A program made the position numbers and the translations under genes. A stretch of DNA of 26,054 nt from a virus (taxonomy: Duplodnaviria > Caudoviricetes): positions 1 to 26,054 of the IMG/VR virus record IMGVR_UViG_3300031170_000002; one strand, 5' to 3'. Positions 5,394-10,951 of the stretch are shown here, in pieces. The stretch's first letter is position 1. Every line of letters starts with the position of its first letter. A model generated the notes under the pieces. The model was given only the letters and a program-made list of their open reading frames with translations, ran no database searches and was not told the DNA's origin.

Positions 5394-6017
5394 TTAGGCT
5401 GCCGGTTGCTGCTCCGGCGATTCAGTAGCAGGCGCGGCCTCGGTGGTAGCCGCCGCTTCAGCTGCGGCCTTCTTCTTGGCCATAGCGTCTTGAAACGCCG
5501 CGACCCGCTTGAGGTCCTTCGGCTGACCCGACTCGTCTAACTTGCCGAGCCGGTCTGGGTCCTTCCGCTCCGTTGTACCGACGCCAACGCTGAACGACTT
5601 GTCGGCGAACGACTTGGCTTCAACGGCGTAGTCCAAGGTGATATAGCCCTCAGCGGGGCCATCGTCCTCGGGAATGCTGAACCAAATGTAGTCTAGCGTG
5701 GTCGCCTCGTCCTTGGCCCACATGCGATTGCTCGTGGTCCAGACGGGTGTTTCCACCCCATTGATGTCGAGCTTGAACTCACCCTCGGGCTGCTTGCCCG
5801 ACCGCTTCGGCAACTTCATCCGCGTGAACTTATAGCCGATACCGCTGTCCATTTCGACAGCGACGAGGCCCGGCTTGCGCGGAGGCAGGTTGGAGACCTT
5901 CGGGGTTTCAGTCGCCGAGCTCAACTTGACGTCCAGTTGACCGACGTTCTTGGGTTCAGCCGTATCTTGCTCCGGCGTTGCTTGCTCTTCGTTGGTAGCA
6001 AACTTCTTCTTGGCCAT
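5394..6017 (-). CDS. Hypothetical protein (207 aa), paralog of 9087..9488
   Basis: Start moved to ATG 6017 (MAKKKF; RBS AAAGGA). Shares LPKR, NG, TSN..W, L.Y.WFS, TL.Y and SV.VGT with 9087..9488. Confidence 0.85.
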   Translation of the reverse strand: MAKKKFATNEEQATPEQDTAEPKNVGQLDVKLSSATETPKVSNLPPRKPGLVAVEMDSGIGYKFTRMKLPKRSGKQPEGEFKLDINGVETPVWTTSNRMWAKDEATTLDYIWFSIPEDDGPAEGYITLDYAVEAKSFADKSFSVGVGTTERKDPDRLGKLDESGQPKDLKRVAAFQDAMAKKKAAAEAAATTEAAPATESPEQQPAA

Positions 6018-6139: not shown

Positions 6140-6361
6140 CTATCGTTTGAGGTTAAGTCCAGGGTCAAGCGGCGCCCTAACCTGGCGAGAGTCGAATGGT
6201 TCAGTCGGCCTCGCGGATGTTACGAAGAACATGCTTTTGTCAGCCTTCAGTTTATCCCAGATTGCTTGGGCTTCTTTCAGAGTCTCCGCTTGTTGTCGCA
6301 TACGGGACTTGTATCCCACGCGGTCGCGGTCACTTGCTAGCATATACCAAACGTCGTACAT
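6140..6361 (-). CDS. Hypothetical protein (73 aa), paralog of 8894..9037
   Basis: GAGGA RBS; starts 1 nt after the upstream stop; MY..W.L, A..IWD.LK and TSARP shared with 8894..9037. Confidence 0.8.
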   Translation of the reverse strand: MYDVWYMLASDRDRVGYKSRMRQQAETLKEAQAIWDKLKADKSMFFVTSARPTEPFDSRQVRAPLDPGLNLKR

Positions 6362-6698: not shown

Positions 6699-6730
6699 GT
6701 TAGACCGCTCGTCAGTCGGTTAGTTCCGTG
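6699..6730 (-). promoter_or_regulatory. ECF sigma-like promoter P2
   Basis: CAC-GGAACT-N16-GTCTAA-C, overlapping the 3' end of 6712..6942. Confidence 0.75.
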
Positions 6731-6942
6731 AGATCAGGGGTTACCCACTTACCGCATCTGTTTAAGATGTAGGCTTGGCCCCCACCTATACCAAGAGTCT
6801 GACCGTAGAAATGATGGGACCGCGGGGTCATTATCGCCCACGCTCCCATTATGGTCTTGCCGTCAATAAACTTACCTCTGATCTTGTCCCCAAAGCTGTC
6901 GACTTCAGGGACTGGGCCGGTCCATTCCTTGCGTTCGCTCAT
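6712..6942 (-). CDS. Small conserved phage protein (76 aa)
   Basis: ATGA overlap with the upstream gene; FIDGKT..GAWAIM...LGIGGGQAY resembles a recurrent small phage family (from recall). Confidence 0.75.
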   Translation of the reverse strand: MSERKEWTGPVPEVDSFGDKIRGKFIDGKTIMGAWAIMTPRSHHFYGQTLGIGGGQAYILNRCGKWVTPDLTELTD

Positions 6943-7236: not shown

Positions 7237-7752
7237 TTAGTAGCCTTCAGTGTCGGCTTGCTCGGTAGCCTCGTGCTCAGTTCCTTGGAGCTGACCGGGA
7301 GCGCAGTCGAAGGCGTAAATGGGCCGTGGCTCAGGGCTGGTATAGCCCGTAATCACTCGCTTGCAATTCTCCGTGCCCTCGCCCTTCAACTCGGCCTCGA
7401 TAGTCATTCGATCGCAGTAATACGCACGCTCGTTCCAGATTGGGGCATCCCTCGACTCCGTGAACCGGAAGCCATGAATGTAGTGAGGCGCTTCAGCTAA
7501 CCGCTCAATGCGCTCCAAAATGGGGAGCACGTCACGGAATGAAGCAACGTAGCAGTGAATCTTGACGCGGTCGCCATCGAGCCAATCGGATACCGATGGG
7601 TCCATCTCTTTGGGGAAGAGATCACGGTTAGCGATCAGGTCGTACGCAAACTTGAAGTCTCCAGACTTCTCCTTGTACTTCAGGATCGTGTCCTTGAGGT
7701 TCTTTCTAAGCCACTCAACGTGGTCCTTCACTTTCGGGGGCAGATCAGCCAT
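7237..7752 (-). CDS. Hypothetical early protein (171 aa)
   Basis: AAGGAG RBS; first gene downstream of promoter P3. Confidence 0.8.
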   Translation of the reverse strand: MADLPPKVKDHVEWLRKNLKDTILKYKEKSGDFKFAYDLIANRDLFPKEMDPSVSDWLDGDRVKIHCYVASFRDVLPILERIERLAEAPHYIHGFRFTESRDAPIWNERAYYCDRMTIEAELKGEGTENCKRVITGYTSPEPRPIYAFDCAPGQLQGTEHEATEQADTEGY

Positions 7753-7793
7753 CTTTAGGCTCCTTGGGTTAACTCGCTTCTCGCGACGTATTT

Positions 7794-7825
7794 GTTAGAC
7801 CCGCCGACAGCGGATTAGTTCCGTG
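7794..7825 (-). promoter_or_regulatory. ECF sigma-like promoter P3
   Basis: CAC-GGAACT-N16-GTCTAA-C, intergenic. Confidence 0.75.
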
Positions 7826-7841
7826 CCGACGGTGGGGAGCA

Positions 7842-8345
7842 TTAATCGCGGTACCACTCGCCGTCCTTGCCCTTGAAGAGGGTGGGACCGTCTTGGTTCG
7901 TGTAAGAGCTGTTAGGTTCAGAGCCGTCATTGATCTCTCTGTCGTAGCCCTCAGGAGTCGAGGTTGAGATCGGTTTGGGCTTCGGCCCGTACCAGAATAT
8001 TGCTGGGCCCGCACCTTGGTCAGGAGTCGGTTGAACTAACACGGCGTTGTCGCATCGGATCAAGTTCCAGTCGCCTTCGGTGACGCTAGAGCGCACCGTC
8101 AGCTCGCTCGGGACTTCAGGGAAATCACGCTCGTCATCATGTCCCCACTTAACGTAGAGGCACGGGGCATCAATACGGGGCGAGGTGAGAGCTAGTTTGT
8201 CTACGGCATCCTCAATACGCTCCCATAATGGAGGGGAGAATTGATCTTCAATATCGGCCCAAGTATAGCGAAATGGGGACATATCATCTTGCCCCACGTT
8301 TGAGCCTTGGGTTACAGCTTCTTTGAATCCTTCACTTAGCGGCAT
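7842..8345 (-). CDS. Acidic hypothetical early protein (167 aa)
   Basis: Start moved to ATG 8345 (MPLSEG; RBS AAGGA); downstream of promoter P4. Confidence 0.75.
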   Translation of the reverse strand: MPLSEGFKEAVTQGSNVGQDDMSPFRYTWADIEDQFSPPLWERIEDAVDKLALTSPRIDAPCLYVKWGHDDERDFPEVPSELTVRSSVTEGDWNLIRCDNAVLVQPTPDQGAGPAIFWYGPKPKPISTSTPEGYDREINDGSEPNSSYTNQDGPTLFKGKDGEWYRD

Positions 8346-8392
8346 TTTAGTCCTTTTCAAGTTCAGAGCGGAGGGAATTCTCCGTTCTTGTA

Positions 8393-8424
8393 GTTAGACC
8401 GCGAATCACGGGAAAAGTTCCGTG
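8393..8424 (-). promoter_or_regulatory. ECF sigma-like promoter P4
   Basis: CAC-GGAACT-N16-GTCTAA-C with a full GGAACTT -35 element; the -35 lies in an inverted repeat TCACGG/CCGTGA. Confidence 0.75.
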
Positions 8425-8438
8425 AAATTAGCTTCCAG

Positions 8439-8733
8439 GTTACGGGTAGGGTTTTGGTTGTGACTTACCCGTAACTTCTGATAGTAGAGTAAATTAGTCG
8501 GGAATAGGGTCTTTCCAAGTTACGGGTTACGAGTACAAGGTGGTGGGGCAAAATACCCGTAACCTTGTAAAAGCCTTTAGAATTAAGGGGATAGCATAGT
8601 CAGGTTACGGGTTACGGGTTACGGCTATGGAAATTTATGCCCTCCGTTTAGGGGGTATTTCCAAAATCCTGAAACTCGGGAGGGTACCTAAAAGCGTATC
8701 ATAAAACAAAGGCTTTTTACCCGTAACCGTAAC
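8439..8733. repeat. Array of ten GTTACG/CGTAAC iteron-like repeats; putative replication origin
   Basis: GTTACG at 8439, 8519, 8526, 8604, 8611, 8618; CGTAAC at 8470, 8558, 8722, 8728; non-coding with AT-rich spacers. Confidence 0.7.
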
Positions 8734-8755
8734 CTGAAAGTGCCGGGCAATTGGA

Positions 8756-8839
8756 CATCCAAATTCACGCTCGGCCCATCCAAATTCACGCTCGACCCAT
8801 CCAAATTCACGCTCGGCCAATCAACGTTGACGCTCGGCC
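8756..8839. repeat. 21-bp tandem repeat, 4 units
   Basis: CATCCAAATTCACGCTCGGCC x3 (one mismatch in unit 2) plus the degenerate unit AATCAACGTTGACGCTCGGCC. Confidence 0.9.
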
Positions 8840-8861
8840 AATCAGCGCGATCCAAGAAATC

Positions 8862-8887
8862 AAACCCCAGCTTCTCAGCTGGGGTTT
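8862..8887 (-). terminator. Intrinsic terminator, possibly bidirectional
   Basis: Perfect 11-bp inverted repeat AAACCCCAGCT/AGCTGGGGTTT with a GAGA loop on the - strand and a T-rich tail, just after the 8894 stop. Confidence 0.75.
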
Positions 8888-8893
8888 CATCTC

Positions 8894-9037
8894 TCACGGC
8901 CTCGCAGACGTCATATGAAATCCACCTCTCTTCAAGCCGTCCCAGATTTCACGGGCCAGATGGACGTTCTCCTCCGCCGGTACGTTCACCTTTAGGGCCA
9001 CCGACGACGCGGGCAGTTGGAACCAAATCGTATACAT
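8894..9037 (-). CDS. Small protein (47 aa), paralog of 6140..6361
   Basis: Not in the track. GAGGAG RBS; MYTIWFQLPASSVALKVNVPAEENVHLAREIWDGLKRGGFHMTSARP. Confidence 0.8.
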   Translation of the reverse strand: MYTIWFQLPASSVALKVNVPAEENVHLAREIWDGLKRGGFHMTSARP

Positions 9038-9058
9038 CGCTTTCTCCTCAGTAAAGGC

Positions 9059-9080
9059 GCGGGGCGCTTTCGCGCCCCGC
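9059..9080 (-). other. Intercistronic GC-rich hairpin with GAAA tetraloop
   Basis: GCGGGGCGC/GCGCCCCGC 9-bp stem between two genes. Confidence 0.6.
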
Positions 9081-9086
9081 TTCAGG

Positions 9087-9488
9087 TTAGGCCCGCTTCG
9101 CCCAAGTATCCCGGAATTTATTTATCCGGCCAGCCTCCGTTTCGAGCCGTTCGGTCACGGTCTCGAATTTCCCGTCCACGAGGCGCTTCGGTACCTTCGG
9201 GCCCGTTCCGACTTCCACGGAGACCTCCGTTCCCTCCCACTCGGCCGCCTTCTCCCCGTAGCCGAGCGTCACGAAGTAGGCGCGACCCTCGACGGAGAAC
9301 CAGAGGTATTCGAGCGCCAGGCTCGGATCACCGCACCAGGCGAGATTCGAGGTCACTATCGTCTTCACGACCGTCCCGTTCACGATTAGCGGCACCGAAC
9401 CGACGCCGCGCTTCGGGAGCGCACCTTTCCGGTCGGAGCACTTCGTCAGGGCGAATTCGCGCCCGTCGAGCAGGTTTACGAGTTTCAT
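9087..9488 (-). CDS. Hypothetical early protein (133 aa), paralog of 5394..6017
   Basis: AAGGAG RBS; no His or Gln; coding strand has no CA. Confidence 0.85.
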   Translation of the reverse strand: MKLVNLLDGREFALTKCSDRKGALPKRGVGSVPLIVNGTVVKTIVTSNLAWCGDPSLALEYLWFSVEGRAYFVTLGYGEKAAEWEGTEVSVEVGTGPKVPKRLVDGKFETVTERLETEAGRINKFRDTWAKRA

Positions 9489-9540
9489 CTTCGGACTCCT
9501 TAAAATCGGGGCGCGAATACCCGCGCGCCCCTATCGGGTA

Positions 9541-9732
9541 TTAGAGGTAAACGACCTCCGCGAGGCCCGCGTAGAGCGGTCCGAACCGCTCGACCGCGAA
9601 TTCGAGCGCCCGTTCTTCGGTCGCGAAAATCCCGTAGACCGCGCCCTTCGCGTTCCGGTTAAGGCGCGAGCCGCGAAGGGCGCTCGCGAGCCTAGGGCTC
9701 GCGAGATAGTAAAACTTCGAGAAGGTCTTAAT
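9541..9732 (-). CDS. Putative first early gene, 63 aa, ATT start
   Basis: Not in the track. AGGAG RBS (9743-9739), 6-nt spacer, ATT; (M)KTFSKFYYLASPRLASALRGSRLNRNAKGAVYGIFATEERALEFAVERFGPLYAGLAEVVYL; downstream of P5. Confidence 0.65.
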   Translation of the reverse strand: MKTFSKFYYLASPRLASALRGSRLNRNAKGAVYGIFATEERALEFAVERFGPLYAGLAEVVYL

Positions 9733-9774
9733 TTCCGTCTCCTAGCTAACCCGCGAACGTCGCGGTCCGTATAA

Positions 9775-9806
9775 GTAAGACCGCGAGTTTTTGGGGAAGT
9801 TTCCCG
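9775..9806 (-). promoter_or_regulatory. Degenerate ECF sigma-like promoter P5
   Basis: GAAACT-N16-GTCTTA-C; same spacing as P2-P4, and shares TCGCGGTCT with P4. Confidence 0.55.
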
Positions 9807-9820
9807 ATTCTGACCTAGGC

Positions 9821-9982
9821 CGACGAACGGTAAAGGGCGCTAGGCGAACGGTAGCCCGGTTTATATACGTTAGTTAGCACTTACTAACCGTATATCTATA
9901 CGGTAGTAGGTTAGTTAGCACCTACTAACTTTTTATCGAACGTTCGTTCGACCGTCGAACGTTCGTTCGGTACTACCGTATA
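9821..9982. repeat. Cluster of direct and inverted repeats at the divergence hub
   Basis: CGAACGGTA x2; GTTAGTTAGCACYTACTAAC x2 (9869, 9910); TCGAACGTTCGTTCG x2 (9936, 9955); 12-bp inverted repeat 9897-9908/9971-9982. Confidence 0.8.
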
Positions 9983-10052
9983 TCCGACGGGTACCCATGA
10001 TGGCGGCGGGTGGGGTGTGGGGCACTGGCCCGTGAGGGAGGACCCGCAGCCC

Positions 10053-10128
10053 TGCGTTTCACGTAACATGCCTGTAGGACAGAGCATATAAATTTGCGTT
10101 TCACGTAACATGCCTGTAGGACAGAGCA
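10053..10128. repeat. Perfect 34-bp direct repeat, 42-bp period
   Basis: TGCGTTTCACGTAACATGCCTGTAGGACAGAGCA at 10053 and 10095; degenerate third copy near 10152. Confidence 0.9.
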
Positions 10129-10208
10129 AATAAGAAAATACCCAGCATAAATAACATACCTGTAAGACGAAAAGCAAACGATTCCAGAAACTATCGTCTG
10201 AAACCCAC

Positions 10209-10237
10209 TTTACTAATGCCTTAAACTAGAGTATATT
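10209..10237 (+). promoter_or_regulatory. Sigma70-type promoter of the late/packaging operon
   Basis: TTTACT-N17-TATATT. Confidence 0.6.
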
Positions 10238-10243
10238 CACTAT

Positions 10244-10402
10244 ATGCCCTCGAAATCTGCCAAACAAGCAAGGACCATGGCAGCAGCGGCTCATAACCCT
10301 GCGTTCGCCAAGAAAGTCGGCATCCCCGTCAGTGTTGCCCGTGAATTCAACAATGCCGACCAGAGAAAGGCAATGGCTACCCAACTAAGGAGCAAGACAT
10401 GA
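10244..10402 (+). CDS. Small conserved phage protein (52 aa)
   Basis: Not in the track. MPSKSAKQARTMAAAAHNPAFAKKVGIPVSVAREFNNADQRKAMATQLRSKT; the AHNPAFAKKVGIP motif is recalled from phage genomes. Confidence 0.8.
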   Translation: MPSKSAKQARTMAAAAHNPAFAKKVGIPVSVAREFNNADQRKAMATQLRSKT

Positions 10403-10579: not shown

Positions 10580-10951
10580 ATGCAGCAAACTAACCTCAAA
10601 GAGATCCTTGAGGAGCCGCCTGAGGGGCCAGTAACCCCTCCAATGCATCTTGTTGAGGAGAACCTCAACGCCCTAGCCATTGCTCCAAAGCTGCCGACCT
10701 ACGTCAAGACGCGCAACGTCAGAGAACAGTTTCAATACGCCTTTGAGCTAATTGGAGGCATACCGCGGCTTGCTCATTGGGCGCATGCTAACCCCGACAA
10801 GTTCTATTCTCTGTACTCCAAACTCATTCCTACTCAGGTAACTGGAGAGGGTGGAGGAGCGATCAAGGTGGAACTGTCTTGGCTCAACTCCAGAGACACG
10901 TCCGGCCGCAGCCCACCGACAATAATCGACATAGAGCCGACATGCCCCTAA
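10580..10951 (+). CDS. terS: Probable terminase small subunit
   Basis: AFELIGGIPRLAHWAHANPDKFYSLYSKLIP followed by QVTGEGGGAIKV, a pattern seen in TerS proteins; upstream of TerL. Confidence 0.6.
   Translation: MQQTNLKEILEEPPEGPVTPPMHLVEENLNALAIAPKLPTYVKTRNVREQFQYAFELIGGIPRLAHWAHANPDKFYSLYSKLIPTQVTGEGGGAIKVELSWLNSRDTSGRSPPTIIDIEPTCP

Follow-up and report, generated by a model that had tools for sequence, protein, structure and literature searches.

The window, i.e. the whole stretch of 26,054 nucleotides analysed here, is a 26-kb fragment (71% complete) of the genome of a podovirus-like phage. Its portal protein shows 33–35% identity to those of the Myxococcus phages Mx8 and Mx9. Two arms diverge at about position 10,000: a leftward early arm with a primase-like gene and the gene for DNA polymerase A (polA), and a rightward arm with packaging and virion genes. 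On the left, the contig breaks off within polA, and on the right within one intact long frame of the virion arm. The features of the locus are listed in Table 1.

Table 1. Features of the purged block and its surroundings (positions in the window).
Feature	Position	Strand	Remarks
DNA polymerase A gene, truncated at contig end	1–1523	−	Hypermodification cluster beyond it in relatives
Downstream paralogue of the first gene, with N-terminal extension	5394–6017	−	42 coding CA versus 32.7 under the null; normal composition
47-aa ORF downstream of the first gene	8894–9037	−	Partly purged: 3 CA versus 7.0 under the null, P 0.008
TG-free + strand stretch, template for leftward early genes	9020–9791	+	Exact count; E 1e-16 at the genome rate for the 774-nt TG gap
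G+C hairpin immediately 3′ of the first gene	9059–9080	−	Possible terminator by sequence reading; not called by the terminator scan
First gene, family member of 133 aa	9087–9488	−	No His or Gln; coding strand with 0 CA, 21 TG
Zone nearly TG-free on both strands	9488–9995	both	2 TG, 2 CA; contains ATT frame, conserved motif and hairpins
Putative 63-aa gene	9541–9732	−	ATT start six bases past AGGAG (9739–9743); 0 TG, 0 CA
Conserved 12-bp motif CCGACGAACGGT	9820–9831	+	Orientation opposite to that in most relatives
Right boundary, sharp: G-/TG-rich tract	9996–10035	+	Similar tracts in relatives; candidate genome end
Conserved gene before the large terminase	10580–10951	+	Small terminase by position; anchor independent of TG content

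About 1 kb at the head of the early arm is depleted of the dinucleotides TG and CA. On the + strand, the TG at 9018 is followed by the next one at 9792, a distance of 774 nt in which about 44 would be expected, and the CA at 9486 by the next one at 9878 (392 nt). In the rest of the window, the maximum gaps are 89 nt for TG and 105 nt for CA. Within 9488–9995, TG occurs only at 9792 and 9811 and CA only at 9878 and 9919; CA is back at 9996 and TG at 9998. These counts reproduce exactly the gaps and the four residual positions of the original prediction, which had been read from the sequence by hand, as well as the abrupt end at 9996. The palindromes that it described as kept (GAATTC, GGTACC, CCTAGG) are found where it had placed them, and there are an extra GGTACC at 9990 and an extra CCTAGG at 9814.

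The depletion also survives a codon-aware null, against which its significance had been left open. For the ORF at 9087–9488, an exact calculation with the protein held fixed and codons drawn from the usage of the window gave a probability of 7.4e-7 for the absence of CA from the coding strand. The lack of His and Gln among its 133 residues contributes a further ~1e-4. All four NCA contexts are affected, so that there is no single motif, and a dinucleotide scan revealed no depletion of TC or GA in the block. At 9501–10000, CG and TA are enriched (odds about 1.9 and 1.8, respectively), both of which are transition products.

At 9020–9487 the loss concerns one strand only (0 TG and 25 CA on the + strand), the absence of CA from the coding strand and that of TG from the template strand being one and the same fact. 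A stepwise relaxation of the constraint along transcription, as originally proposed, was confirmed, and the block indeed heads the early arm and covers the first transcription unit. The claim that it spans genes and intergenic DNA holds overall, although part of the DNA regarded as intergenic contains the ATT-started frame at 9541–9732, for which a homologue search gave no hit. By its position, the zone 9488–9995 would hold the first promoter of the window; a promoter and sequence scan did not pin it down. Neither a nucleotide match to the block among cultured phages nor an Rfam match within 8300–10400 was obtained.

An assembly artefact was ruled out by the codon-aware null and because identical sequences were recovered elsewhere. 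A Logan contig of run X1, which is possibly the source of the window, is identical over 7500–10082, and a 193-nt piece from run X2, which belongs to a different study, is identical to 9212–9404 inside the first gene.

Repeats occur on both sides of the block. Direct and inverted GGTTAC-type repeats at 8432–8740 are followed by four 21-nt tandem repeats at 8756–8839. This region (8432–8839) separates the first unit from the primase arm and is origin-like by position; relatives have similar short-repeat tracts. Just right of the boundary, at 10053–10133, there are two 42-nt tandem copies; unrelated tandem copies are found there in relatives.

No PHROG family and no Pfam family was found for the first gene. 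It shows 32% identity (E 5e-12) to the paralogue 3 kb downstream, which has normal composition and so serves as a natural control. The two copies also occur as a pair in G002, G003, G006, G007, G008 and L322. Stop-to-stop frames were counted for 17 non-redundant first copies, four duplicate or partial rows (L336, L016, L341, L238) having been removed. Thirteen contain three or fewer coding CA, three contain 9–11 (G008, L048, L366), and one distant relative contains 40 (L377). The five downstream paralogues contain 28–49. A family profile search yielded 92 representatives, 88 of them under 300 aa; at most one His or Gln in the core was found in 38 of the 56 short forms versus two of the 32 N-extended forms (Fisher P 7e-9, with kin that are not independent). 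The small ORFs at 8894–9037 and 6140–6361 look alike by eye at both ends and are possibly a second purged/unpurged pair; BLAST did not link them at E 0.05. The former matches L069 274–480 at 38%.

A model of the first-gene product (pLDDT 82, from 13 sequences) predicts a compact beta domain with a C-terminal helix. Its best hits were at E 0.19 in BFVD, E 0.35 in the PDB and Z 3.4 in VIA, Atlas giving nothing usable, and this Z of 3.4 is also the best score bearing on a modified-base reader fold (PUA, EVE or SRA); fold searches without a match are evidence neither of absence nor of novelty. Because the fold has no significant match, we infer the role of the product from its position and duplication, which point to a factor binding DNA or RNA polymerase.

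A comparison with relatives, as suggested along with the original prediction, revealed a comparable block at the same place in members of the lineage. Relatives were chosen by terminase and portal, composition not being a criterion, and were oriented as the window. Maximum TG gaps are 680 nt in G001, 821 in G002, 655 in G003, 432 in G006 and 532 in G007. Blocks are weaker in G004 (four TG in 500 nt) and G008 (185-nt gap); G005 ends short of the region and was excluded. A metagenome survey, among the 80 matches listed, provided 41 loci with at least about 800 nt upstream of the anchor gene. Beyond the window and the records already counted, TG gaps of 307–1076 nt occur in L308, L310, L322, L331, L336, L340, L341, L344, L348 and L364, with L336 nearly a copy of L002 and L341 of G003. 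Among the other metagenome loci, many stop short of the region and seven are only distantly related. The block is thus a trait of the lineage at the head of the early arm, found in relatives with unrelated DNA sequence. As the DNA of most members cannot be aligned by eye, the purge appears to be maintained and not inherited letter for letter.

Some members deviate from the common arrangement. In L316 the cassette points to the right and the depletion is reversed too (6 CA and 25 TG in 492 nt). The first gene of L071, assigned to the family by eye, is unpurged (32 coding CA, 7 TG). The sister genomes G020 and G028, whose capsid is 65–66% identical and which are 98–99% complete, carry the kinase and a thymidylate synthase-like (TS) gene; in neither was a transferase match, a first-gene family match or a kb-sized block found, and G020 has only a 152-nt island free of TG and CA (40461–40613). 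A 261-nt TG/CA-free island in G032 was not counted, as it consists of a low-complexity coding repeat. When we scanned for a 16-base motif, 98 loci were obtained, and only four known lineage members have three or fewer TG in the adjoining 500 nt. The other loci are by look chance matches or belong to an unrelated phage group, and one was too short to judge.

Several of the later early genes in G002 and G006 likewise contain little coding CA (z down to −3.6); such a gradation is not seen in the window past 8894. In G002, a TG-dense spacer separates two cleared islands. CANTG-type arrays flank the cleared islands of G002 (L019 5300–5520 and 5880–6060) and of L322 (1500–1590 and 1950–2110). They are the densest TG+CA windows of G002, with 30–32 per 150 nt versus a mean of 19, and may be roadblocks or binding sites.

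In most relatives, the 12-bp motif lies just 5′ of the sigma70-like −35 box of the first promoter. The −35 boxes (TTTACT, TAGACT or similar) contain neither TG nor CA, and a TATAAT-like box follows 16–18 nt further in most relatives. Unpurged L071 also has a TG-free −35 box, so that these boxes may reflect an activator-type promoter. The 12-bp motif occurs as well 5′ of a promoter-like sequence beside a terminase-like gene in L242, L215, L207 and L384, a set made up of an unrelated phage group and a distant relative.

In other members too, start codons are altered where the purge affects both strands. ATT opens the first gene of G002, and L322 has ATC at the corresponding position, each six bases past AGGAG. 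Coding-strand TG is reduced to two in the first gene of L310 and to one each in L331, G002 and L322; in the latter two, sequence reading shows the remaining one to be a Trp codon. The right-pointing third gene present in G002 and L322 reverses the template rule and is not explained by it. Its coding strand is nearly TG-free (one and two TG, respectively), while its template strand retains 16 and 13 TG, only five of which are shared, and in G002 its mRNA is CA-rich. Between the two genomes, 69 of the 273 bases differ, with a net gain of one TG.

Beyond polA, complete relatives have genes for a TS-like protein, a P-loop kinase, HMUDK_hel and an amino acid:DNA transferase. HMUDK_hel was found in five of the seven block-bearing relatives (G001, G003, G004, G006, G007); the two others, G002 and G008, are fragments (68% and 47% complete). 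In the 5-hmdU DNA kinase/HMUDK_hel test, PF18723 scored above cut-off in these five genomes and PF18748 below cut-off (E 2e-5). The TS-like gene (dUMP hydroxymethylase) is present in G001, G004, G006, G007 and G046–G050. For the transferase, PF18724 is above cut-off in G003 and G006, and homologues occur in G007 and G046–G049. The gene order is polA, ligase, exonuclease, transferase, helicase, kinase, HMUDK_hel and TS in G003, G006 and G007 and also in G047–G049, which are not independent because they were picked by HMUDK_hel. The cluster was tested in the G contigs, with L310, L316, L322, L331 and L377 outside that test.

In the window, no HMUDK_hel match was found; the contig, 71% complete, ends inside polA, before the position that the cluster has in relatives. 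No contig overlaps its ends, and there is no exact overlap to any cluster-bearing contig. G046, a 14.3-kb contig, contains exonuclease-to-tail genes that are absent from the window and likewise does not overlap its ends. The polA of the window is 67–77% identical to that of G006 and G007, and all three contigs picked by terminase or portal that contain polA and DNA beyond it (G003, G006, G007) have the cluster. From this we infer that the genome of the window carries the hypermodification cluster as well.

The pathway of thymidine hypermodification (described in PMC8989533 and PMC5889632) and its TG context are already known. Resistant sites are stated to include TG and TC in PMC6449724, which also cites an unpublished result that the M6 kinase modifies TG, and near-full modification of TG sites is reported for dapT (PMC13458397). 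The relatives share the TS-like, kinase, HMUDK_hel and transferase genes with the thymidine-hypermodifying phages M6, YuA, PaMx11, ViI, PhiW-14, SP10 and SH-Ab 15599, and the purged step is the TG context published for these (PMC5889632, PMC8989533, PMC6449724, PMC13458397). The present lineage differs in being podovirus-like. Its transferase has its best cultured match in PhiW-14 (30–33%, E 1e-31). Among the frames of the YuA and PaMx11 clusters, only polA, TS, HD, kinase, HMUDK_hel and transferase have a match in the lineage; no tailoring enzymes were seen in this comparison.

Other carriers of the pathway served as controls. In 12 cultured carriers, PhiW-14 included, gaps in TG or CA never exceed 208 nt. 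Ten of these carriers had been chosen from 113 HMUDK_hel matches, and SP10 and ViI, which we take to be pathway carriers, were added. None of 14 further uncultured contigs with HMUDK_hel (13 of 26, plus G014) has a comparable block, and gaps in five records without HMUDK_hel are at most 223 nt. As neither set of carriers has a block, possession of the pathway does not by itself bring one about; hypermodification is not a sufficient condition for the block and can at best be a required one. Two HMUDK_hel-bearing contigs contain islands free of TC and GA, G014 at 62144–62394 (250 nt) and G024 at 6722–6864 (142 nt).

Since TG is the published context of the pathway and relatives encode that pathway, the mark avoided would be the phage's own. 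The purge is real, and we consider it very likely that it is selected and avoids this mark, whether the sensitive step is transcription or a process that tracks one strand at the genome end. Of these steps, transcription of the incoming DNA is favoured, the strand-tracking process comes next, and a host reader of CA/TG is less likely. Transcription in vitro by E. coli RNA polymerase is reported to drop upon kinase treatment to 10% of that of the hmU template (PMC6457204), the assays described there concerning the phosphorylated intermediate and not the final adduct. Bulky or charged groups are reported to inhibit T7 polymerase more when on the template strand (PMC11550810).

Probably, then, the start-up unit has been cleared of TG so that host RNA polymerase can read the incoming decorated DNA. 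Thymine would be replaced by hydroxymethyluracil, and a bulky group would then be added at TG steps. The region 9020–9995 would be the start-up unit, from which TG was likely removed by selection and which would stay readable by the host enzyme. At the site of promoter binding and opening, TG would be absent from both strands; along the gene body, clearing would be strict on the template and variable on the other strand. His and Gln codons and sometimes the ATG start would be the cost. The first product would open the remaining early arm, where the unpurged second copy would take over.

The same mark may be avoided for another reason, the sensitive step tracking one physical strand near the genome end, such as entry of the DNA, processing of its ends or the copying of a terminal repeat. 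Every leftward cassette has its + strand cleared, and the same holds for the third gene of G002 and L322, which points to the right. The right boundary of the block is sharp and coincides with a conserved G-rich tract just 5′ of the packaging genes. We nevertheless consider this unlikely. The depletion reverses with the flipped cassette of L316, the promoter and terminator-like hairpins bound the block, and the spacer between the cleared islands of G002 is dense in TG. In addition, no pile-up of contig ends or starts was found at the boundary. With regard to the first-injected end considered in the original prediction, the block adjoins the packaging genes on their upstream side, and a terminal repeat was not found.

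The original prediction had named a host factor reading CA/TG as the agent. Such a factor, whether an RNase that cuts at CA, a DNA-binding protein or a restriction- or BREX-like system, would act on the first transcript or DNA until the first product neutralised it. The first mRNAs of most members do lack CA, this feature flips with the cassette of L316, and the window itself contains no pathway genes. This attribution is probably wrong, however, as TG is the context published for hypermodification and the relatives have the genes of that pathway, and we regard such a reader as quite improbable. The CA-free mRNA recalls the ACA-less type that escapes an RNase, but such an enzyme leaves unexplained why TG is also lost from coding strands, why ATG is changed to ATT or ATC (not required by pressure against CA) and why the purge extends to DNA ahead of the genes; in G002, the third gene even has a CA-rich mRNA. 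Restriction and BREX motifs are longer (4–8 bp) and concern both strands, whereas here a whole dinucleotide is lost in all four NCA contexts, without a single motif, and on one strand over 9020–9487, with palindromes retained. Least probable is a local mutational process (a deaminase acting on an exposed single strand, or miscoding at a modified base) that erased TG/CA without selection: the transition products CG and TA are enriched, but the survivors are start codons and a conserved Trp codon, the limits of the block coincide with gene and promoter boundaries, the protein family remains conserved, and the third genes of G002 and L322 differ extensively and yet gained one TG.

Clearing of TG for transcription of the incoming genome may be part of a two-stage start-up, which we put forward tentatively. 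Hypermodified TG would silence the incoming genome, from which the TG-free promoter and gene escape. Their product would let RNA polymerase read decorated DNA, the unpurged paralogue would sustain this, and the TG-dense arrays would act as roadblocks.

Precedents exist for single elements of this arrangement. The first-injected regions of T5 and T7 are poor in restriction sites. There as here, DNA whose function is needed first has been freed of a short motif; here, however, this motif is a dinucleotide, the clearing is strand-asymmetric, six-base palindromes are kept, and it is most likely an enzyme of the phage itself that targets the motif. Base J of kinetoplastids is reportedly a hydroxymethyluracil-derived mark whose distribution is tied to the sites where RNA polymerase starts and stops. 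In CpG islands, too, the distribution of a base mark is tied to where RNA polymerase starts. In contrast to both, the unmarked stretch appears here to be encoded in the sequence by removal of the acceptor dinucleotide, and no reader protein is known in the present lineage. Our search of the published literature, with most subscription journals outside it, found no sequence-encoded unmodified start-up unit.

The lineage bears on the way in which hypermodified phage DNA is read by host RNA polymerase upon entry. The present case adds a paralogue control, altered start codons, a flipped cassette and sister genomes without the transferase, and it names a candidate factor for the transcription of modified DNA. 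With its purged first gene, unpurged paralogue and flipped cassette, the lineage is sharp test material. If our interpretation is right, dinucleotide gaps show from the sequence alone the context of a DNA mark and the genes that are read first, and base modification is seen to reshape amino acid content and start codons. If the start-up indeed proceeds in two stages, DNA hypermodification would be a transcriptional switch and not only armour.
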